From: Terriglobia bacterium
GTDB taxonomy: Bacteria; Acidobacteriota; Terriglobia; Terriglobales; Acidobacteriaceae
DNA length: 64,000 nucleotides
Assembly (NCBI GenBank): GCA_963734455.1
Contig: CAVTHC010000004.1
Location: 1,852 to 65,851 of the forward strand
Direction: 5' to 3'
The position numbers were made by a program, and so were the translations under genes. The notes beneath the pieces are model-generated. The model did no database searches. It was not told the DNA's origin and was given only the letters and a program-made list of their open reading frames with translations. The first letter of the stretch is position 1; each line of letters begins with the position of its first letter. This document shows positions 6,481 through 17,870 of the stretch, one piece after another.

Positions 6481-9351
6481 ATGCTTACCATTCGCGCCAT
6501 GTCCGACGGAACAGGCTACTCCGCACGCCATTTGGAGCATAGCGATTACTATGCCGAAGGCGAGCGCGTCACGGGCCAATGGCAGGGGCGAGGAGCGGAG
6601 TTGCTCGGACTGGCCGGGAAGGTTCAGTCGGAGCACTTTGAGGCACTGCGCCAGGGCCTCGATCCCCAAAGCGGCGAGTTCCTCCGGCAGCGCCACAGCG
6701 CCGACCGCACCGCCGCTGACGGCAGCACCCAAAGCCGAGGCCGAAACCTGTACGACTTCACGATGTCGGCTCCCAAGTCGGTTTCAATCATGGCCGAAGT
6801 GGGTGGGGATGCCAGACTGACGGAAGCGCATCGGAAGGCCGTTCAAGAAACGCTGAAGGAGTTGGAATGTCAAGCTGCAAGCCGGGTCCGAAGGCATGGG
6901 GCGAATGATAACCGCATCACGAGTAATCTTGTATTGGCCGTCTACCATCACGACACCAGCCGCGAACTTGACCCTCAGCTTCACACCCACGCGGTTGCCG
7001 CTAATCTGACCTATGACGGCGCTGAGGGCTGTTGGAAAGCTCTTCAAGCCTCTGGTATCTACGAGCAACGGGCTTACCTTACCGAGGTGTACCGGAACGC
7101 CTTGGCCCGCGAGGTGCGCTCTCTGGGTTACGGGATTGACGACCGGCGTAGCTCCAAAGGCAAGAACCTGGGCTTTGAGATCAAGGGTGTGTCGGATGAA
7201 TTGCTCGAAAAGTACAGCCAGCGCAGCGAGCAGCGCGACCAGGCGATTGCCGAGTTTGTCGAGAGTAAGGGTCGTCAGCCCAGCGACAACGAAATCGCCG
7301 TGCTGGTTCGTGAGTCGCGGGCCGATAAGCTGGTTGAGATTTCAACTGCAGAAGTGTATTCGCGCCAAGCCGCTCGCTTGACCCCAGAAGAGAGCCTAGC
7401 CCTTGAACGAATCCGCGGAACAGTCCTGGAGAGATCCCACACGGTGCGACCAGAACTGGCGAGCGCAGTTCCTTCGCTCGACTACGCCAAGCAGCACGTT
7501 TTTGAGCGTGTCTCCGTGGCGCTTGATCACGAACTGTTGACGGATGCACTTCGTCATGGCCGTGGCCGGATTGACTTGTCGGAACTGAAAGGAGAGTTTT
7601 CACTAGAGGAAAGCGCTGGCAAAATCCTGCGGGCTGGGAAGGAAGTCGCCACCCGCGAGAGTCTTGACCGTGAGCGGGACATGATCGAGCGGATCAATCG
7701 CGGGGTCGGTCAGTTTCAACGATTGGGCGGAGAGAATGAATTCGCTGCTTCCGAGTTCCTCCGTCCCGAGCAGAAAGAAGCAATCGAATTTGTTCTCAAT
7801 TCGCGTGACCTGGCGGTGAACATTCGCGGGGCGGCAGGCACCGGGAAAACCGTTACGCTGCAAGAGCTGCAGCGCGGCCTCGAAGAGAGTGGTCGCCGTG
7901 TGTTGGCGGTGGCTCCCACGATGAGCGCGGTTGAAGAACTGCAGAAAGTCGGCTTCGCGGATGCCATCACGGTGGAACGGCTGTTACAGGGCCAGAGTGC
8001 TCAAACAGACTTGTTCGGGAAAACGCTGATCGTGGATGAAGCAGGCATGGTTTCCGGTCGTCAAATGTCCGAGCTACTAAAGCTGGCCGACGAGCAATCA
8101 ACGCGAATCATCTTCAGTGGTGACACCAAGCAGATTCGAAGTGTCGAGGCCAGCGATGCTCTTCGGGTGCTGGAAAGAGAATCTCACTTAAAGAGTGTTT
8201 CGCTTAGCGAAGTGCGACGGCAGACCGCCCAAGGCTATCGCGACGCGATTCAGGAATTGCGCCGTGATCCTGAGCGCGGCTTCGAAAAGTTGGAACAAAT
8301 TGGTGCGGTGCGTGAGGTCCCCTGGTCCGACCGGGCACAGGCAGTTCAGCAAGCTTACTTAGAGAGTCAGGCGCAGGCCAATGCGAAGGGCCAACCACGC
8401 AGTGTGCTGGTTGTCGCCGCCACACACGAAGAGATTGGCCATATCACCGAAGCTATTCGCGCTGAGCGCACGCGCACGGGTGAACTGGGACAGAGTAGCC
8501 ACGAGCAGCACCACGTGCCACTGAACTGGACGAGTGCGGAGAAAAGTGACCTGCGGAACTATGCTGAAGGTCAGGTGCTGGAATTTCATCGGGCGGTCAA
8601 GGGCGTTGCTAGACATGAATCGCTGGAAGTCATCGGAGTGGAAAACGGCAAGGTCGTTGCCCGCAACGCGCGCGGCGAAGAGCACGAGTTCACAGCGAAG
8701 CAAGCGAAATGCTTTGAGGTCTATGAGCGCCGTGCCATTGAAATTGCTCCCAATGACAAGTTACTGCTGATGGCAAATCGGCGCGATCCTGATTTTCGCG
8801 CTACCAATGGCGAGCTGGTGACAGTTTCCCGAATTGACGAGCAGGGGCGCATTCATCTACAAGATAGCCGCACTCTACCGGAGAATTACAAGCAATTCAC
8901 ACACGGTTACGCTATCACCGCCCATCGTAGCCAGGGGAAGTCTGTGGATGCGGTTGTCATCTCCGCTGATGGGATGCGAAAGGAGTTGTTCTACGTAGCT
9001 GCGTCGCGGGGCCGGGAGAGCATCACGGTTGTGACCAGCGATAAAGACTTGCTGCGGGAGTCGGTAGCAAGCTCAGTCGCCCGGCAATCTGCTTCCGAAT
9101 TGTCGCGCAAAGCGCAAGGACCTTCAATGGAAAGGCTGAAACCGTCTTTACGCGAGCATGAACGCCGCGAACTGCCGGTTGCCCTTGAGCGGGGGTGCGA
9201 TAACGTACTCGAAGGAAAGGCGGAACTTAGAAAAGCTCCCACCCCCGAGACTGTGCAGACTATCGACCGGGAGAAACCCAGTTGCGAGCAGAAGCAGGAA
9301 CAATTCATAGACCCGGGACACTACTTCGGCATCAGCCGGTTAAGCCGGTAG
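6481..9351 (+). CDS. MOBF-family conjugative relaxase with C-terminal RecD/TraA-like helicase (TrwC/TraI type)
   Basis: 956-aa ORF. N-terminal relaxase motifs (YYAEG..., MSAPKSVS, histidine triad HHDTSRELDPQLHTHAV). Helicase Walker A GAAGTGKT and Walker B LIVDEAGMV. Confidence 0.9.
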   Translation: MLTIRAMSDGTGYSARHLEHSDYYAEGERVTGQWQGRGAELLGLAGKVQSEHFEALRQGLDPQSGEFLRQRHSADRTAADGSTQSRGRNLYDFTMSAPKSVSIMAEVGGDARLTEAHRKAVQETLKELECQAASRVRRHGANDNRITSNLVLAVYHHDTSRELDPQLHTHAVAANLTYDGAEGCWKALQASGIYEQRAYLTEVYRNALAREVRSLGYGIDDRRSSKGKNLGFEIKGVSDELLEKYSQRSEQRDQAIAEFVESKGRQPSDNEIAVLVRESRADKLVEISTAEVYSRQAARLTPEESLALERIRGTVLERSHTVRPELASAVPSLDYAKQHVFERVSVALDHELLTDALRHGRGRIDLSELKGEFSLEESAGKILRAGKEVATRESLDRERDMIERINRGVGQFQRLGGENEFAASEFLRPEQKEAIEFVLNSRDLAVNIRGAAGTGKTVTLQELQRGLEESGRRVLAVAPTMSAVEELQKVGFADAITVERLLQGQSAQTDLFGKTLIVDEAGMVSGRQMSELLKLADEQSTRIIFSGDTKQIRSVEASDALRVLERESHLKSVSLSEVRRQTAQGYRDAIQELRRDPERGFEKLEQIGAVREVPWSDRAQAVQQAYLESQAQANAKGQPRSVLVVAATHEEIGHITEAIRAERTRTGELGQSSHEQHHVPLNWTSAEKSDLRNYAEGQVLEFHRAVKGVARHESLEVIGVENGKVVARNARGEEHEFTAKQAKCFEVYERRAIEIAPNDKLLLMANRRDPDFRATNGELVTVSRIDEQGRIHLQDSRTLPENYKQFTHGYAITAHRSQGKSVDAVVISADGMRKELFYVAASRGRESITVVTSDKDLLRESVASSVARQSASELSRKAQGPSMERLKPSLREHERRELPVALERGCDNVLEGKAELRKAPTPETVQTIDREKPSCEQKQEQFIDPGHYFGISRLSR

Positions 9352-9951
9352 CTTGATCACGAAAGCGTAGCCGATATGCATACCTTGGCAATCGTCGCCA
9401 AACATTACAGTGGCGGGTCGCACAAGTGGCGGTAAACCGTTAGGGATCAGTACCACGACCCAGCCGAGCCGGGAAGGAGTTCCGCCCTGGGTCGCGTCGG
9501 TCGCATCGGGATCAGTGGCTCGACACTGTGTTCCTGCTGATGCACTGGCTCTTCCGTGGGTTCTGCTGTGGGTTCTGCTGTTCCAGTTCCACTCTAGGTA
9601 CTGGCGCACGGTTTGGTTTACCTGCGCCTCGTCCCGAGCAGGTGGGCCGTCATGGACAAGAGCGTCAAACTCGGTCGGAAAGCCGACTAGTAGAAAATGT
9701 CCAAGCTGTGATTCTCCTGTGAAATCAACGCGTCTGGCAATGCCCTCACAACTCTTATTCTGATTTCAGAACAAGCCAACTTTTCTAGATTTTTCCACAG
9801 CCTCTTCGATTAGATTGCTGCTTCTCTTTTTGCAACTTTGGTCTCTCGTGCGCGAGGAACAGCCCAGGCTCTACCCCGTGACGCTCGTAGAAGAACAGCA
9901 ATCCGTTTTGAACAGAGCCGGAAACATGCGCCAATAGCGTCAGGAGCGACA

Positions 9952-12900
9952 ATGAAAACCTCCGCTAGAATTTTCTTCCTCTTGCTAATCGTGTCATTCG
10001 TCACCAATGTTGCCCGCGCGGACTGCCCCCAGGGAGGGAATGCAACGTGCATAACGTCGTTCACGATTTCGCCGGCTGCAATTCCGGGCGACAACACGAC
10101 CACAGCTCTCGGCCAAGCCACGGCTCATATTGCTACCGGATACAATAGTTGGGAATTGGAGATAAGGCAATCGGGTAGTCTCGGCTGGGTTTGCCATCCG
10201 CCCGCAGTGCATCTTAGTCCGAACAGCGGCGGCGTGGGCTTTGCCGGGGGTTGTGCCGTCACAGGCGCGAGCGTGTCTTTTGAAATGTTTGGGCTGAACG
10301 GGGATTCGTCCCCCGTGCAGGTCGCCATAACAGGCGCAGCCGCTTACAACAACGATCCTGGAATAGACACGTCACTGACCCTGAACCCGAGACCCCCAGC
10401 TCTACCTCCCGACCAGGACCCTGACGGCCCGTGCCCCACATGCGGATATGGCGGCGCTCCTATTAACTTCGGTAATGGCGACACCTGGATCAGTCAACAG
10501 GACTACTCGATTCCGGGTCTTGGTGGCGGCCTGGTTCTCGGTCGGACCTGGAACAGCCTCTGGTCGTTAAGCCAGCCGCCCGAGGAATCCGGCATCTTTG
10601 GCGACAGTTGGCGCAGCAATTTTGAGGAACGCATACAGGTTTTGACGGGAGGAGTGGCCAAATATTGGAAGGGTAACGGAAGCAAGATTTTCTACGCATA
10701 CGACAGCGGCTCCGGCGGGTATGTCAGGACCGCACCAGCCGACGACCGTACAACACTGGATTACGACTCTATCACCATGCTCTGGACCGCTACGCAAAAG
10801 GACGGAGTCAGAAGAATCTTTAACAATGCGGGCTATCTAACCTCAATTGTGGACCGCAACGGCAACACCACCACCATCGTTGTGGACGCGGCGAACCAGA
10901 ACCGTATTTCCAGCGTCACCGATGCCGCTGGCCGTACCTTGACCTTCAATTATGCCAATGCCAATCCGCATCTTTGCACCAGCGTCTCGGATTCCGTTGG
11001 CACCGTCGCAACCTACAATTACGACTCCTCGGGCCGGTTGACCCAGGTCGTCTATCCCGACGGTTCGCAGTTCAATTTCAGCTATGACACGGGCAACCTG
11101 ATTCTGAGCGTGACCGATTCGCTGGGCCAGACCCTGGAAACGCACACTTACGACTCCCAGAATCGAGGGCTGAGTTCAGCGCAGGCCAGCGGAGTCAATC
11201 AGGTTTCACTCTATTATTCAAGTTCGACGGGCTCACCGGTGGTCATATACAACTCCCTAGGCCAAGCGTCCTGGGCCTACTTTTCTACGGTCGCACAGCG
11301 TCGATACCTGACTCAACCTCCCACGAATGTCGGTTGCGCCACTTGTGGATATGTACCGGGTTCTAGCTTCCTTCTCTCCGCTTCTGGCGACACGACGGCG
11401 TTCACTGATGGCAACAGCAACACCACCTACTACACGTATGACAGCCAGGGCAACGTCACCAGCAAGTCACTTCCTGACGCTTACCAGACGGGTGGCTACG
11501 ATATTTGGCAGTACACCTACAATGCTTTTAGCGAAGTTCTTTCGGTCACCGATCCGCTGAACCAGACCACCACCAATTCCTATGACAGCAACGGAAATCT
11601 GCTTTCCACTACTACGCCATCCCCCGATGGTTCAACCGCTGGCAGCGTCACGAGCTTCACCTACGACAGCCACGGCCAGCTCACGCGGATTACTGATCCG
11701 TTGTCAAACCAGACCAACATCGCCTACTACTCGACCGGTTTAATCCACACCATTACGGACACTCAGTCAGACGTGACCACCTATGCTTATGACGCTCGCG
11801 GCAACCGCACCAGCGTAACCGATGCCGCCAGTAATCAGACCCAGTTCCAGTACGACTCCATGAACCGGCTGACGAAGATCACCTACCCGGACAGCAGCAC
11901 GGTGCAGTTCGCCTATGACAACCGGGGGCGTCGCACGTCGGTCACCGACCAGAACAGCAAGGTCACGCAGTACGCCTACGACGACGCCAACCGCCTGACC
12001 TCGGTCACTGACGCGGCCAGCCATCAGACGCAGTACACGTATGACACGGAAAACAACCTGACCGACATCTACGATGCCGCCAGCAACCACACCCATTTCG
12101 ACTACATCATTGGCCGCCAACTGCAAAAAATCACGTTCCCCTCGGGTTTGTACGAGCAGTATTCTTTGGATAACGCCGACAACCTGGTCTACAAGTGGGA
12201 CCGAAAGAACCAGCAGCTCGCTTTGTCTCGCGATGCCCAGAACCGGGTCATTCGCCGCATCGATTCCGGCAACACGGTCTACTACACCTATGACGCCGCT
12301 GGCCGCATGACTCAGGCGCAGGATAACACCGGCACCTACGGTTTCACCTACGACAACATGGGCCGGTTGACCGAGACCACCACGAACTATACATTCCTGA
12401 CCGCGCGCGGATTCAACGTCCAATACGCCTACGATGCTGCGTCAAACCGGGTGACCTTGACCGATCCCGAGAGCGGCACCACGCACTACACCTATGACAC
12501 GCTTAACCGGCTGACGGGTCTAAACGACTTCCAGTCGCACAATTTCACATTCGGCTACGACGCCCTCAGCCGCCGTTCCCAGCTCACCCGGCCCAACGGC
12601 ATCAACACCAATTATTCCTACGACAACGTTTCTCACCTGCTTTCGGTGCTGCATCAACTCGGCAGCACCACAGTGGACGGGGCCAGCTATGTCTACGATT
12701 CAGCGGGCAACCGCACGGCCAAGACCGACCAGGCCAGTAGTGTTACGTCGAATTACGGCTACGACGCGATTTATCAGCTGACGGGGGTGTCCCAAGGGTC
12801 TACGTCTACGGAGAGCTACACCTACGACACGGTGGGTAATAGGCTGTCGTCTTTAGGCGTGTCACCGTACAGCTACAACTCGTCGAACGAGCTGACCTCG

Positions 12901-13911
12901 ACTCCGAGTACGACCTACACCTACGACAATAACGGGAGCACAGTGACGAAGGTCGACTCCACCGGCACGACCACATACACATGGGACTACGTGAACCAGT
13001 TGAGCAGTGTCGCGCTGCCGGGCTCGGGCGGGACGGTTAGCTTCAAGTACGACCCCTTCGGGCGGCGGATTTACAAATCTTCATCAAGCAGCACTTCGGT
13101 GTTCGCCTACGACGGCGATGACCTCATCGAAGAGACAAATTCAGCCGGAGCGGTCGTTGCTCGTTATTCTCTGACGGGAAATATCGATGAGCCTCTGGCG
13201 ATGCTGCGGAGCGGCGGGACAAGCTACTATGAGCAGGATGATCTTGGCTCTGTCACTTCACTCACCAATGGTAGCGGGTCACTAGGGCAAACATACACAT
13301 TCGATTCATTCGGAAACCAAACTGCGTCCGCTGGTTCTCTTACAAATCCAATCCGCTTCGCGGGCCGCGAGTTCGATGCTGAATCGAGCCTCTATTATAT
13401 GCGCGCCAGGTATTTCGATCCCGTCGCCGGGAGGTTCATCAGCGAAGACCCGAACGGTAACGGGACTCTGTACGATGATATGAATCTCTACGTCTACACC
13501 GAAAACAATCCCACTAATTGGACTGATCCTTTGGGGTTGTACACCTTGAAAAAGGGCGGAAAACATCCGCCTCTTCCGCCTTCTCCAGTAATCGATGCCC
13601 TTCTCAAGTGCATCGAAGCCAAGACGGGGCTTCAGCTTACGGTGACGTCAACGTCCGAGGATATTCCGCAGCATGCGCCTGGAACTCCACACAGAAGGGG
13701 CGTCGCTGTTGACCTTAAATACGATTCGGGAAATGCCGACAAAATCCTGTGTGCGGCTTCGGGTTGTGGCGCTGGCTTTGGGCTGGACGAGGGAAAGCAT
13801 CCGTCGGCACAGTCCACGGGCAATCACATTCATCTTCAAATCCCGCCCGGCAAGAATGGCGGGCGCGGCGACCTTCCGAAGAAACCGTGCAGTGATAGCG
13901 GGTGCAAATGA
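9952..13911 (+). CDS. RHS/YD-repeat polymorphic toxin with Sec-type signal peptide and LAS/M15-like metallopeptidase C-terminal domain
   Basis: ATG at 9952 preceded by AGGAG. Signal MKTSARIFFLLLIVSFVTNVARA. Dozens of YD repeats (xYxYDxxGNR/L). Core-end motif NPTNWTDPLGL. The 123-aa tip (13540-13908) carries PHRRGVAVD (HxxGxAxD) and HIH (HxH). Confidence 0.9.
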   Translation: MKTSARIFFLLLIVSFVTNVARADCPQGGNATCITSFTISPAAIPGDNTTTALGQATAHIATGYNSWELEIRQSGSLGWVCHPPAVHLSPNSGGVGFAGGCAVTGASVSFEMFGLNGDSSPVQVAITGAAAYNNDPGIDTSLTLNPRPPALPPDQDPDGPCPTCGYGGAPINFGNGDTWISQQDYSIPGLGGGLVLGRTWNSLWSLSQPPEESGIFGDSWRSNFEERIQVLTGGVAKYWKGNGSKIFYAYDSGSGGYVRTAPADDRTTLDYDSITMLWTATQKDGVRRIFNNAGYLTSIVDRNGNTTTIVVDAANQNRISSVTDAAGRTLTFNYANANPHLCTSVSDSVGTVATYNYDSSGRLTQVVYPDGSQFNFSYDTGNLILSVTDSLGQTLETHTYDSQNRGLSSAQASGVNQVSLYYSSSTGSPVVIYNSLGQASWAYFSTVAQRRYLTQPPTNVGCATCGYVPGSSFLLSASGDTTAFTDGNSNTTYYTYDSQGNVTSKSLPDAYQTGGYDIWQYTYNAFSEVLSVTDPLNQTTTNSYDSNGNLLSTTTPSPDGSTAGSVTSFTYDSHGQLTRITDPLSNQTNIAYYSTGLIHTITDTQSDVTTYAYDARGNRTSVTDAASNQTQFQYDSMNRLTKITYPDSSTVQFAYDNRGRRTSVTDQNSKVTQYAYDDANRLTSVTDAASHQTQYTYDTENNLTDIYDAASNHTHFDYIIGRQLQKITFPSGLYEQYSLDNADNLVYKWDRKNQQLALSRDAQNRVIRRIDSGNTVYYTYDAAGRMTQAQDNTGTYGFTYDNMGRLTETTTNYTFLTARGFNVQYAYDAASNRVTLTDPESGTTHYTYDTLNRLTGLNDFQSHNFTFGYDALSRRSQLTRPNGINTNYSYDNVSHLLSVLHQLGSTTVDGASYVYDSAGNRTAKTDQASSVTSNYGYDAIYQLTGVSQGSTSTESYTYDTVGNRLSSLGVSPYSYNSSNELTSTPSTTYTYDNNGSTVTKVDSTGTTTYTWDYVNQLSSVALPGSGGTVSFKYDPFGRRIYKSSSSSTSVFAYDGDDLIEETNSAGAVVARYSLTGNIDEPLAMLRSGGTSYYEQDDLGSVTSLTNGSGSLGQTYTFDSFGNQTASAGSLTNPIRFAGREFDAESSLYYMRARYFDPVAGRFISEDPNGNGTLYDDMNLYVYTENNPTNWTDPLGLYTLKKGGKHPPLPPSPVIDALLKCIEAKTGLQLTVTSTSEDIPQHAPGTPHRRGVAVDLKYDSGNADKILCAASGCGAGFGLDEGKHPSAQSTGNHIHLQIPPGKNGGRGDLPKKPCSDSGCK
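11891..13061 (+). repeat. 1171-bp direct repeat, copy 1 (inside the full-length rhs)
   Basis: Sense and antisense ORF translations are identical to those of 14689-15859. Boundaries were determined by reading both copies. Confidence 0.9.
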
Positions 13912-14531
13912 TCGCATTCGGGCAAATTCGCATCTATGCGTCGCGGATCGCTTTATCGTTGATGTTCTTGCTTACGGCGACTCCGACCTTCGCCCAGCAG
14001 GGATCATCTCCGCCAGCGCCTGCTAAACCCAGTGAAGAGTCTGCGCTCTGCAAGCGGGGATCTCTACCTCCGGACGTAGAGAGTCGCCTCAAAACAGAGT
14101 TCGGCTCTTGGAAGATTCAGGAACCCGCAGACCTCAGCCCGCATGCCCACGAAAGATGGGAATCTGAGAAGCCACGGGCGTGCCCGGGTATCGCTGTGGG
14201 GCAATTCGAGATCGCCAAGATGCTCTCCTATGCTGTTCTACTGGTCCCCCAAAGTCACACAGTCGCAGGCTACAAATTCCTCGTCTTCAGTCCTAAAGCC
14301 GGGCAGCCGTCCTACGAGATGAGGGTTGCTGATTCGGGTGATAGTGGAGCCGCTAACTTTTTCATCCACACGACACCGATCAGCAAGTTCTTCGATGAGC
14401 CATCCAGGAAGAAATTTCAAGCCCACACCGTGGACGGCATCTTACTCGTAGACTCAGCCGAAAATGAATATGGGGTAGAGGTGTACTTTTGGTCCAGCGG
14501 CCACTATCGGCACGAGCCGATAGACTACTAG
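13908..14531 (+). CDS. candidate cognate immunity protein, secreted/periplasmic
   Basis: ATG overlaps the rhs stop (ATGA at 13908-13911). Signal peptide SLMFLLTATPTFAQQ. I recognise no family. The position immediately 3' of the toxin tip is the classic immunity position. Confidence 0.6.
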   Translation: MIAFGQIRIYASRIALSLMFLLTATPTFAQQGSSPPAPAKPSEESALCKRGSLPPDVESRLKTEFGSWKIQEPADLSPHAHERWESEKPRACPGIAVGQFEIAKMLSYAVLLVPQSHTVAGYKFLVFSPKAGQPSYEMRVADSGDSGAANFFIHTTPISKFFDEPSRKKFQAHTVDGILLVDSAENEYGVEVYFWSSGHYRHEPIDY

Positions 14532-14688
14532 CTTGGCCTGACTCCCCCCTTTAGCTGTCTCTGAGGTCCTGCCAGGGCAGGGTTAACGTGCAGCGCCGGG
14601 GAGCGCCGGTGCCCAGGCCCCCAAGTGATCGGACCGCCGCTAATCTATGCCCAGCTACTTGCGGTTGCGAATCGCGATGACGAGGGCA

Positions 14689-15859
14689 ACAGCAGCACGG
14701 TGCAGTTCGCCTATGACAACCGGGGGCGTCGCACGTCGGTCACCGACCAGAACAGCAAGGTCACGCAGTACGCCTACGACGACGCCAACCGCCTGACCTC
14801 GGTCACTGACGCGGCCAGCCATCAGACGCAGTACACGTATGACACGGAAAACAACCTGACCGACATCTACGATGCCGCCAGCAACCACACCCATTTCGAC
14901 TACATCATTGGCCGCCAACTGCAAAAAATCACGTTCCCCTCGGGTTTGTACGAGCAGTATTCTTTGGATAACGCCGACAACCTGGTCTACAAGTGGGACC
15001 GAAAGAACCAGCAGCTCGCTTTGTCTCGCGATGCCCAGAACCGGGTCATTCGCCGCATCGATTCCGGCAACACGGTCTACTACACCTATGACGCCGCTGG
15101 CCGCATGACTCAGGCGCAGGATAACACCGGCACCTACGGTTTCACCTACGACAACATGGGCCGGTTGACCGAGACCACCACGAACTATACATTCCTGACC
15201 GCGCGCGGATTCAACGTCCAATACGCCTACGATGCTGCGTCAAACCGGGTGACCTTGACCGATCCCGAGAGCGGCACCACGCACTACACCTATGACACGC
15301 TTAACCGGCTGACGGGTCTAAACGACTTCCAGTCGCACAATTTCACATTCGGCTACGACGCCCTCAGCCGCCGTTCCCAGCTCACCCGGCCCAACGGCAT
15401 CAACACCAATTATTCCTACGACAACGTTTCTCACCTGCTTTCGGTGCTGCATCAACTCGGCAGCACCACAGTGGACGGGGCCAGCTATGTCTACGATTCA
15501 GCGGGCAACCGCACGGCCAAGACCGACCAGGCCAGTAGTGTTACGTCGAATTACGGCTACGACGCGATTTATCAGCTGACGGGGGTGTCCCAAGGGTCTA
15601 CGTCTACGGAGAGCTACACCTACGACACGGTGGGTAATAGGCTGTCGTCTTTAGGCGTGTCACCGTACAGCTACAACTCGTCGAACGAGCTGACCTCGAC
15701 TCCGAGTACGACCTACACCTACGACAATAACGGGAGCACAGTGACGAAGGTCGACTCCACCGGCACGACCACATACACATGGGACTACGTGAACCAGTTG
15801 AGCAGTGTCGCGCTGCCGGGCTCGGGCGGGACGGTTAGCTTCAAGTACGACCCCTTCGG
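14689..15859 (+). repeat. 1171-bp direct repeat, copy 2 (5' part of the orphan rhs cassette)
   Basis: Offset of 2798 nt from copy 1. Homology starts at ACAGCAGCACGG and ends at CCCCTTCGG. Confidence 0.9.
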
Positions 15860-16685
15860 CAGGAGGATTCAGAAGAGTGGGCCGAGCGGGACCGTGAACT
15901 ACCTCTATGATGGCCCCAACCCTCTGGAAGAGGTCGATCAGAACGGAAATGTTCTGGCCAGGTACACGCAAAGTGGTCTGATTGACGAGCCGCTGTCCGA
16001 ACTCCGTGCGAGCACGACCAGCTATTACGAGCAAGACGGAATCGATGCGGTTACTTCATTGAGCAATTCAGCGGGGGCACTGGCCAACACGTACAGCTAC
16101 GATTGTTTCGGCAAGCTGACCGCCTCCACCGGAACGATAACCAATCCATTCCAATACACCAGTCGGGAGTTCGATCTCGAAACCGGATTGTTGAACTACA
16201 GGGCGCGCTATTACGACCCGACCATCGGCAGGTTCGTCAGTGAAGACCCGATCGGATTCCATGCCGGAGTGAATTTCTACGACTACGTGCTGAACAGGCC
16301 TACTGTGTTTCTCGATCCAACTGGACTCGCGGGAGGACCCTATGGCACGTACGAGAAGACACGGTCATGGGGCAGCAAAATCAAATGCGCCATATACCTG
16401 GTCTACTGCACAAGAAACCTGCAGCAGACGCGTGACAGCCTTGACAACATGACCGACCAAGCAGTGACGAATACATCCGACGCGACGAGCAACCAGGGAA
16501 GCTACAGCAACCAAAGGCTGCAATGCGGCCTCTCACAAGATCCTAACTGTCAAAAGGCGCTGGAAAACTGCGTGAAGCTTGGGCTTACGAATCCTTTTCC
16601 TCCTCCGTCTTGGATGAAAGACTTGATCAATTATTTTTCGCAACCCAGTTCAACGCAACCGACTCCCCCGCCAACTCAACCGTGA
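14689..16685 (+). CDS. orphan (displaced) RHS C-terminal cassette lacking the N-terminal two thirds and signal peptide; alternative toxin tip
   Basis: RHS homology begins abruptly at 14689 with no RBS or signal sequence. It has its own divergent core end (...FLDPTGL) and a 118-aa Cys-rich tip (16329-16682) unrelated to the first tip. Confidence 0.8.
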
Positions 16686-16696
16686 GAGGAGGTCTT

Positions 16697-17200
16697 ATGC
16701 GCACTCTCTTGGCTATTGTTCTCGGCGTGGCTTTGAGCCTGATTCTACTGCTGGGTGAAAGCTTCTTCGTCATGAACTTCACGAAGGGCGGACAGGTGAC
16801 GCGGGATGCACTTTTCATCAAGAACGCGACGGACGCCGCACTCGCCCAGAAGTATGGTGGCGATCCGTTCGAACTGATACGGTCCACGCAACGGACCCAG
16901 AAATTCGTGCTGGAACCGATGATGGCCATCGCTGTCGGTCTTCTCGTGGGCTTCGTGGACAGGACTCGACCAAAGTTCTCAGCAGGCGTCGCTCTCATCC
17001 CGTGGATCATCGTCAACCTTGCCGGGTTGCACTGGCGGCAAGCCTGCGAGGCGTGTCTCGGAGGTGATCTGGCGCTTAACGCTGCTTACCCCGGAATCGG
17101 GATACTAGCAGCGCACTATTGCGGAAAGCTGGTGCATCGCCGGGGTGGAACTGCTCTGGTACAGCGGTCCGTAAAGCCCGAAGGTGTTAGACCAAGATGA
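16697..17200 (+). CDS. candidate immunity protein for the orphan tip; about 4-TM membrane protein
   Basis: ATG at 16697 preceded by GAGGAGG directly after the rhs stop. Hydrophobic segments LLAIVLGVALSLILLLG, MMAIAVGLLVGFV, VALIPWIIVNLAGL, YPGIGILAAHY. Confidence 0.55.
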   Translation: MRTLLAIVLGVALSLILLLGESFFVMNFTKGGQVTRDALFIKNATDAALAQKYGGDPFELIRSTQRTQKFVLEPMMAIAVGLLVGFVDRTRPKFSAGVALIPWIIVNLAGLHWRQACEACLGGDLALNAAYPGIGILAAHYCGKLVHRRGGTALVQRSVKPEGVRPR

Positions 17201-17771
17201 CTATGCAGGTGATGCCGCGATGAGGGGTAATTGGGATTGGGAGATCATCCCCGAAGGCACCGTCGAATGGATCGGTTTCTCTATTGCGCTGTTGGTTGTT
17301 CTGGTAGCCGCCTGGTGGATATCCCGATGAACTGATCCTTTTTAGCCCCTCGATCCGCTGCCCGCGGTCCGGTGCTGTGGGGTTCTGCCCGCAGGAAGTG
17401 AGCGGCTGGTAAAGTCAAAGCCCGGCCATTGCTGCGCATGGGGTTTACCAAGAGAAGTTTCTGGAGCTTCTTCCGGGTCATGGGCCGCAGCGAAGCCAGG
17501 TACCCGGCAAGCTCGTAGGGGTGAAACCTCCCACACGGCGGCCTGAAATCCTGGCAGCTCGGCGGCAAACTCGGGATGCTGCTCGGCGACCTCAGCGAAG
17601 GTCAGCAGCTTCTCTCTCACCAGATAGTCCAGGGCATTCTTCAGGCCGAAGCGCCGCCGGATGGTGCGGGTGGCTTGGCACTGCTTTCTCCAAATCTTGT
17701 GGCCGTGCATGAGGGAAACTATAGCGCCGTCGTGCGTCGTTCGCCAAGCTGGGCCAACAACAACTCGGAGC

Positions 17772-17870
17772 AAGACACCATCCCTTGCGCCTGCGGCGCA
17801 ATGAAAAGCGCACTGCCGGAAAGCACCCGGCGTCCGGTGAGCATCCGGGCTTTGTCCGGTGTCTGTCCGG
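17772..17870 (-). promoter_or_regulatory. degenerate second copy of the oriT-like module (minus orientation)
   Basis: The reverse complement contains a 34-mer with 30/34 identity to 6360-6393 (17829-17862). TCCGG motifs are phased at 11 bp (17833/17844/17855/17866). It has the hairpin TTGCGCC-TGC-GGCGCAA (17785-17801) and the identical 13-mer GGGATGGTGTCTT (reverse complement of 17772-17784). Confidence 0.5.

Follow-up and report, generated by a model that had tools for sequence, protein, structure and literature searches.

Organization of the Locus

We analyzed a stretch of DNA of 64,000 nucleotides (hereafter, the window) from a Terriglobia bacterium of the Acidobacteriaceae (assembly GCA_963734455.1, contig CAVTHC010000004.1, positions 1,852 to 65,851 of the forward strand). 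The window contains a full-length rhs gene, which we call the main rhs gene, and downstream of it an orphan RHS open reading frame (ORF). The C-terminal tip of this orphan ORF is followed directly by a gene encoding a membrane protein, which we call the partner, and then by a very small third gene (Table 1). Read from its sequence, the locus is a classical orphan rhs C-terminal toxin/immunity cassette, and the tip and the membrane protein very probably constitute a toxin/immunity pair.

The orphan ORF was assigned to the RHS repeats by Pfam (PF05593, RHS_repeat, E value 1e-37, 11 stretches). Its identity to the main rhs gene falls at position 15860 from 100% to about 55%, and the divergent last part of the shell ends in a sequence that corresponds to the RHS demarcation and autocleavage motif PxxxxDPxGL. 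This motif directly precedes the tip, and it is also found before the tip in most of the relatives described below. Comparison of the two paralogues therefore reveals a conserved core that changes abruptly into an unrelated tip.

A preliminary description of this DNA had placed a tip of 118 residues at this position, and our translation is identical to the sequence quoted there. The tip was said to have six cysteines and a proline-rich tail; the tail is genuine, but the cysteines number five (positions 20, 27, 66, 74 and 81), and a sixth is found only before the tip, within the YSYDCFGK sequence of the RHS core. The ribosome-binding site and the start codon proposed for the next gene can both be read in the sequence. 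The view that this gene encodes a polytopic protein with about four transmembrane (TM) segments agrees with the Kyte–Doolittle hydropathy of the 167-residue product, in which four hydrophobic spans are seen, three strong and one weaker, and with its AlphaFold2 model, which has four helices.

Table 1. Coordinates of the cassette, of the main rhs gene and of related features in other loci (positions without a locus number are those of the window).
Feature	Position	Strand	Remarks
Full-length (main) rhs gene	9838-13911		DUF6531 domain and RHS repeats
Orphan RHS ORF	14625-16685	+	Without a credible start
Orphan rhs core fragment	14689..15859	+	1171 bp, 100% identical to 11891-13061 of the main gene
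Divergent end of the orphan RHS shell	15860..16328	+	Ends in RPTVFLDPTGL (16296-16328)
Candidate toxin tip, 118 aa	16329..16685	+	TGA stop at 16683-16685
Shine-Dalgarno-like GAGGAGG	16686..16692	+	4 nt before ATG 16697
Four-helix membrane protein, 167 aa, candidate immunity	16697..17200	+	ATG 11 nt downstream of the tip
Single-pass membrane peptide, 36 aa, MRGNWDWEIIPEGTVEWIGFSIALLVVLVAAWWISR	17220..17330	+	Possible co-immunity factor
ORF of about 75 aa, subfamily C	L014:1892-2119, L056:3324-3551, L051:1743-1970		Similar places in L047, L050, L054 and L062
Immunity-only islets	L084:2801-4023, L081:2886-3375		Frameshifted last ~20 tip codons, then intact membrane gene

Relatives and Distribution

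Relatives of the tip were sought by an exhaustive HMMER search over 1.84 billion representative proteins. Twelve matches were obtained, of which about ten are true, and every one of these is the C-terminus of an RHS protein. Two matches outside the RHS family, P0026 and P0027, are large repetitive proteins with 7 and 14 short matching stretches, respectively, and were discounted as compositional. For the partner, we found 17 close homologues and, by profile, 103 clusters; all are annotated as hypothetical and none has a Pfam domain, and the named clusters derive from metagenome-assembled genomes (MAGs) of Acidobacteriota.

The pattern scans of contigs were based on a close alignment of six tip sequences. 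Species-representative genomes yielded eight loci, all in Acidobacteriota MAGs (Bryobacterales, Acidobacteriaceae, Acidiferrales and Terriglobia), and the scan of metagenomes yielded another 52, from soil or peat. Within 400 sampled genomes of the phylum, tip and partner were absent outside the window's own genome, which contains a single copy of each. Neither protein therefore has a housekeeping function, and the sparse occurrence indicates a rare and patchy module, similar to mobile competition cassettes.

The tip is also found at the end of full-length RHS proteins, namely in L003/L005 (1155 residues) and L006/L007 (1310 residues), with the latter starting with the signal peptide MGRLARLLVMLSSVLLSTLVANA, followed by QC. 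Three subfamilies were distinguished. Subfamily A resembles the window, and its partners are 149–172 residues long, with a 29-residue insert in loop 1 and a CxxC motif; the partners of subfamilies B (L013-like) and C (L014-like) have lengths of about 134 and 128 residues, respectively.

The Tip and the Membrane Protein Occur Together

Pairing was analyzed by running hidden Markov models (HMMs) of both families against the six-frame ORFs of every retrieved locus. In every locus with a tip, a homologue of the partner is located directly downstream on the same strand. This holds for all 57 pairs in which the tip is complete (33 of these pairs are distinct), and the gap between the two genes is 3–40 nt. 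Dozens of independent contigs contain conserved homologues of both ORFs in the same arrangement, which is far beyond chance. Moreover, the pairwise distances of tip and partner are strongly correlated (Mantel r = 0.91, a value that none of 2000 permutations reached and that linkage and common ancestry inflate). Divergence is faster in the partner than in the tip, by a factor of 1.35. As far as sequence distances can tell, this correlation is the pattern expected of a cognate pair.

An intact membrane gene is also present next to decayed tips, in L001/L018, where just the last ~25 residues of the tip are left, and in L070, L072, L081/L082 and L084/L085. Truncated tips were found in L070 and L072, and also in L025 and L068. 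The partner copies of L081/L082, located between rne and mazEF, and those of L084/L085 appear to stand alone; a frameshifted remnant containing RCTKLALTSPFPP is, however, present directly upstream of them (tip HMM, E value 2e-5). Such persistence of the partner where the toxin has been lost is a signature of immunity genes. Next to the membrane gene of L084, on its downstream side, is a gene for an exported protein of 196 residues, homologous to an immunity candidate of another RHS cassette (L002:11221-11817), and this locus looks like a small poly-immunity islet.

The array at L002:7646-12834 contains other orphan RHS tips, which are also rich in cysteines. Two of these end in PPFP-like sequences (VPSPPFPF and GNPPFPGWPNQ, each directly before the stop) that recall the TNPFPPPSW of the tip family, which reflects either a shared C-terminal tag or chance. 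As partners, the L002 tips have either a polytopic membrane protein (8834-9313) or a protein with a signal peptide.

Searches for Known Families

Analyzed as single sequences, the tip, the partner and the small downstream ORF gave no match in Pfam or NCBIfam, and Pfam searches with every member of the alignments of the tip and partner families gave scattered noise only. The profiles of tip and partner did not match any PDB sequence at E values up to 10. Similarity of either protein to the bacteriocin and colicin immunity families within Pfam was not detected either. The catalogue of Zhang et al. 2012 contains one immunity family with two TM helices (Imm-CdiI) and one pore-forming tip (Tox-WTIP) (PMC3482391). 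Both were considered as identities of partner and tip, respectively, and neither fits. Judged by these sequence comparisons, tip and partner are undescribed families, which belong to none of the catalogued Tox/Ntox or Imm families.

These results bear out the preliminary description, in which the tip could be placed in no toxin family, and extend that statement to the partner, whose model is also without a significant Foldseek match in the PDB. The pair had been proposed there as a candidate new toxin/immunity family, a proposal that is strengthened by the complete co-occurrence in the recovered loci, the co-varying distances and the immunity-only remnants.

Features of the Tip

Alignment of the tip family revealed that the four cysteines that form a twin Cx6C pattern (C20/C27 and C74/C81) are invariant. 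The other invariant features are N48/T49, Q62, D71-x-N73, T87, N88 and the sequence TNPFPPP-x-W. The fifth cysteine is conserved near position 66, with a shift of one residue between subfamilies. The alignment contains neither a conserved histidine nor a recognisable catalytic motif. Conservation is concentrated in the C-terminal half of the tip (QRLxC...DxNCxxAxxxC..L.TNPFPPPxW), and the N-terminal helix is variable. A literature search for the motif NPFPPP did not find a paper containing it. The proline-rich tail is not a feature of the whole family, being absent from the L003-type and L013-type tips.

The tip is hydrophilic: its highest mean Kyte–Doolittle value over 19 residues is 0.29, versus 1.6–2.5 for the TM helices of the partner, and its helical hydrophobic moments do not exceed 0.47. 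The AlphaFold2 model of the tip, which was based on an alignment of ten sequences, is unreliable (predicted local distance difference test, pLDDT, 41.6) and too poor for a fold search. Helices are predicted with low confidence at residues 4–39 and 72–86, and we took from the model no more than the weak indication that the tip is all-helical.

The Membrane Partner

The partner was modelled with better confidence (alignment of 18 sequences, pLDDT 77.7, predicted template modelling score 0.66). The model consists of four long helices, comprising residues 2–28, 57–87, 92–109 and 118–157. The density of lysines and arginines favours a topology in which both termini would be located in the cytoplasm. 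The putative periplasmic loop 1 then has 43 residues, and the putative periplasmic loop 2 contains a CxxC motif (C117/C120). This motif and Cys 142 in the fourth TM helix are nearly invariant in subfamily A; subfamilies B and C lack both. Conservation is lowest in the putative periplasmic loops (0.25 and 0.38) and highest in the TM helices (0.54–0.63). The short partners of 125–136 residues are homologous to the 167-residue protein (hhalign 98.5%, E value 1.9e-15).

Four TM helices and a CxxC motif in a loop are also features of thiol oxidoreductases of the DsbB/VKOR type. This identity was rejected, because the CxxC motif is confined to subfamily A and there is no Pfam match; in addition, the DsbB/VKOR fold was not among the 50 best PDB matches that Foldseek listed for the partner model. 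The best Foldseek matches, on ExbB, PomA and TolQ, had an E value of 0.36 at the lowest and TM-scores of about 0.2–0.3, and nothing was found at E ≤ 0.001. For a predicted model of this kind, such matches are most simply read as generic helical-bundle noise.

The Third Gene

The ORF for the 36-residue peptide begins with MRGNWDW and is preceded by AGGTGA, 7 nt upstream of its ATG. Gene callers often miss this peptide. Members of subfamilies A and B have it at the same position, and its variants include MKGEWDWDIVPEGKVEW and VSGNDDWNIVPEDAAEW. The ratio of nonsynonymous to synonymous substitutions (dN/dS) is mostly 0.02–0.3, and the synonymous divergence reaches saturation. The ORF is therefore a real gene, which is under purifying selection. 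The peptide has an acidic N-terminal tail rich in tryptophan, a single TM span and a terminal basic residue, a build that suggests an orientation with the N-terminus outside, as in the Pf3 coat protein.

In L001 and L070, the peptide is intact next to decayed tips, which fits a role in co-immunity better than one as a release factor. We know of no RHS system for which a micro-peptide with a co-immunity role has been described. Most loci of subfamily C have a different third ORF in place of the 36-residue peptide; this conserved ORF encodes about 75 residues with 2–3 TM spans (VALAFLWVGYALCFFGGLWIVVLAWQEG).

The Main rhs Gene and the State of the Cassette

Read from an internal ATG, the product of the main rhs gene begins with MKTSARIFFLLLIVSFVTNVARA, followed by DC, which is a Sec signal peptide. 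Its tip has an HxxGxAxD...HxH pattern that, as a motif reading, resembles the LAS peptidases (this tip and the next gene together occupy 13480-14531 on the plus strand); searched alone, the tip had no Pfam match. The next gene (13902-14531) encodes a product with a signal-peptide-like N-terminus, which by its sequence is the candidate immunity protein of the main RHS tip.

The orphan cassette would be silent as a toxin in this genome, since both a start codon and a signal peptide are lacking. The immunity genes each have their own ribosome-binding site. A consensus scan of 14400-17800 for sigma-70 promoters and intrinsic terminators did not reveal any above the shuffled expectation. A single recombination across the identical repeat of 1171 bp would delete the resident tip together with its immunity gene and join the orphan tip to the main RHS protein. 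TssC, the sheath gene of type VI secretion systems (T6SSs), was not found in the genome, which is 90.7% complete.

Discussion

The explanation that in our opinion accounts best for these results, and in which we have moderate confidence, is that the locus is an orphan rhs cassette of an undescribed family, with a tip that acts from the periplasmic side and an immunity function that resides in the membrane. Autocleavage at PxxxxDPxGL would release a payload of about 100 residues. The cysteines of each pair are spaced i, i+7 and would thus lie on one face of a helix, and the presence of two such pairs suggests an antiparallel hairpin with two disulfides. The payload may therefore be a small helical domain in which two antiparallel helices are stapled by the bonds C20-C81 and C27-C74. 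Such a hairpin would fold and act in an oxidising compartment. Its target would be in or at the inner membrane and would be reached from the periplasmic side, and the tip would probably act on it through binding, not as an enzyme or a pore; we give this periplasmic, non-pore mode of action about an even chance. The conserved C-terminal half of the tip would be the warhead that engages the target, and the variable N-terminal helix, together with the variable loops of the partner, would set the specificity of immunity. The four-helix protein would be the cognate immunity protein, neutralising the tip at or within the membrane, with the 36-residue peptide joining in two of the three subfamilies.

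The CHCH proteins, which are hairpins with a twin CX9C pattern, were considered as relatives of the tip and rejected, since the spacing is Cx6C instead of Cx9C and Pfam gave no match. The principle of the stapled hairpin may be common to both.

Action outside the cytoplasm is suggested by three observations. The tip has five conserved cysteines, including the twin Cx6C, without a conserved histidine; the main RHS protein has an enzyme-like HxxGxAxD...HxH tip and an immunity candidate with a signal peptide; and the other cassettes of the L002 array have exported or membrane partners. The setting agrees with a periplasmic site of action, in that the carrier RHS proteins are Sec-exported and a T6SS sheath gene was not found. 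The activity directed at the membrane that was hinted at in the preliminary description appears to fit this evidence.

Several points weigh against the explanation that we prefer. The scheme of hairpin and disulfides is derived from the cysteine spacing alone, and the pLDDT of the tip model is as low as stated above (41.6). The number of conserved cysteines is odd, which leaves one of them unpaired; this residue may have a catalytic role or be engaged in an intermolecular bond. In the short immunity homologues, the periplasmic loops have about 15 and 9 residues, which is little surface for binding a soluble toxin, so that protection of the target or blocking of entry is favoured over direct capture. 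A Sec-exported RHS protein would need a route into the periplasm of a neighbour in Acidobacteriota, and TssC was not found in this genome at 90.7% completeness. The co-divergence statistic is inflated, as indicated above, and toxicity and protection are both deduced from context.

A tip that forms pores or acts as an ionophore, like Tse5-CT, the contact-dependent growth inhibition (CDI) ionophores of the CdiA-CT(EC93) type or the pore-forming colicins, with a partner that blocks the pore in the bilayer, has an obvious attraction: as far as can be checked, every known RHS or CDI toxin whose immunity protein is integral to the membrane depolarises membranes. The concentration of conservation in the TM helices of the partner would also fit. 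The tip itself, however, lacks a hydrophobic segment and any hydrophobic or glycine-zipper helix that could cross the membrane, as its hydropathy and hydrophobic moments indicate, and is in this respect unlike the membrane-spanning helices of known pore formers. Moreover, its profile did not find any PDB chain at E = 10, and structures of Tse5 are present in the PDB (PMC10684867). On sequence grounds we thus consider a classical pore-forming mechanism quite unlikely. The fifth conserved cysteine, or one of the conserved Asp/Asn residues, could instead be catalytic in a small enzyme that acts on a membrane or periplasmic substrate, such as a lipid carrier or a cell-wall precursor, while the partner shields the substrate or binds the enzyme. 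The invariant polar residues (N48, T49, Q62, D71, N73, T87 and N88) are consistent with this possibility, as is the envelope-directed, enzyme-like tip of the main RHS protein. An enzyme is nevertheless unlikely, given that the conserved part has just ~100 residues and contains neither a conserved histidine nor a catalytic motif, that profile matches in Pfam, NCBIfam and the PDB are lacking, and that the fifth cysteine is displaced by one residue from one subfamily to another, whereas a nucleophile would usually stay in place.

We regard it as improbable that the tip acts in the cytoplasm, as a nuclease or translation inhibitor, while the partner blocks its import across the inner membrane, the type of immunity that the preliminary description had considered as an alternative. 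CDI toxins do enter via integral inner-membrane proteins, by N-terminal entry domains built as small bundles of helices that contain a disulfide (PMC11630599), and a membrane immunity protein could mask a receptor of this kind. The tip is, however, not followed by a second domain that could serve as the cytoplasmic toxin, the invariant twin Cx6C is suggestive of structural disulfides, a type of bond that does not form in the cytoplasm, and Pfam did not detect a nuclease-like or other enzyme-like motif. We know of no precedent in RHS or CDI systems for a cognate immunity protein that blocks entry. Finally, the tip could be a non-toxic plug or linker of the RHS shell, and the downstream membrane genes unrelated cargo. 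The function of the tip is indeed deduced from its context, and its model is of low confidence; but this possibility is hardly compatible with the complete synteny in 33 distinct pairs and their co-divergence, the position of the tip exactly at the RHS toxin site, after PxxxxDPxGL, the retention of the membrane genes next to decayed tips and inside an immunity islet, and the strong conservation of all three ORFs, and we consider it very improbable.

Returning to a tip that acts at the periplasmic face, a more specific proposal, which we put forward tentatively, is that the tip is a non-enzymatic mini-protein ligand stapled by disulfides. The RHS cage would deliver this ligand, which may plug or mis-activate an essential machine of the inner membrane, and the four-helix protein and the Pf3-coat-like peptide would, as a two-component immunity, capture the toxin at the membrane surface or mask the target. 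If true, the proposal would mean that a polymorphic-toxin system can act in the manner of microcins.

A hydrophilic toxin that is countered by an immunity protein embedded in the membrane suggests that the target, so far unexplored, lies on the periplasmic face of the inner membrane. The phylum Acidobacteriota is dominant in soil but poorly studied. If worked out, the mode of action could uncover a weak point of the Gram-negative envelope that is new, together with a new type of two-part immunity. At present, we see the finding as a solid discovery at the level of annotation, which will not surprise specialists.

Comparison with Known Systems

Class II microcins such as MccV, with its immunity protein Cvi, and pore-forming colicins with the immunity proteins Cai and Cei are systems in which a small, sometimes disulfide-bonded toxin hits the inner membrane from the periplasm and is counteracted by an adjacently encoded immunity protein with 2–4 TM segments. 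They differ from the cassette described here in that the toxins are freely secreted and taken up via receptors, instead of being delivered by an RHS cage.

The CDI ionophores, which dissipate the membrane potential, share with our cassette a polymorphic tip and a small, fast-diverging integral-membrane immunity protein, CdiI (PMC11630599). Their scaffold, however, is CdiA and not an RHS protein, and the tip in the window has no counterpart of their five-helix bundle, for which a membrane-spanning arrangement is predicted.

Closer in its scaffold is Tse5 (RhsP1)-CT/Tsi5 of Pseudomonas aeruginosa, which also combines a C-terminal RHS fragment without predicted enzymatic activity with an integral inner-membrane immunity protein (PMC9637101, PMC10684867). 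In contrast to the hydrophilic tip described here, Tse5-CT inserts into membranes as a pore-forming toxin, and its delivery is by a T6SS. For Tsi5, two TM regions are predicted (PMC9637101), versus the four helices and the separate single-pass peptide of our cassette.

The genetic organization corresponds best to the orphan rhs-CT/rhsI cassettes (Poole et al. 2011, PMC3150448; PMC3482391), which likewise consist of an RHS core, a PxxxxDPxGL motif before the variable tip and a small cognate gene downstream. The absence of a start codon and of a detected promoter from the fragment, the long identical repeat shared with the main rhs gene and the presence of immunity-only remnants elsewhere are further similarities. 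The differences are that the partner is a polytopic membrane protein accompanied by a conserved micro-peptide, and that the carrier RHS protein is Sec-exported and not linked to PAAR or a T6SS. Since the exchange of antibacterial payloads by RHS cassettes is well understood, the architecture is an ordinary one, and it is the payload and the antidote that are new.

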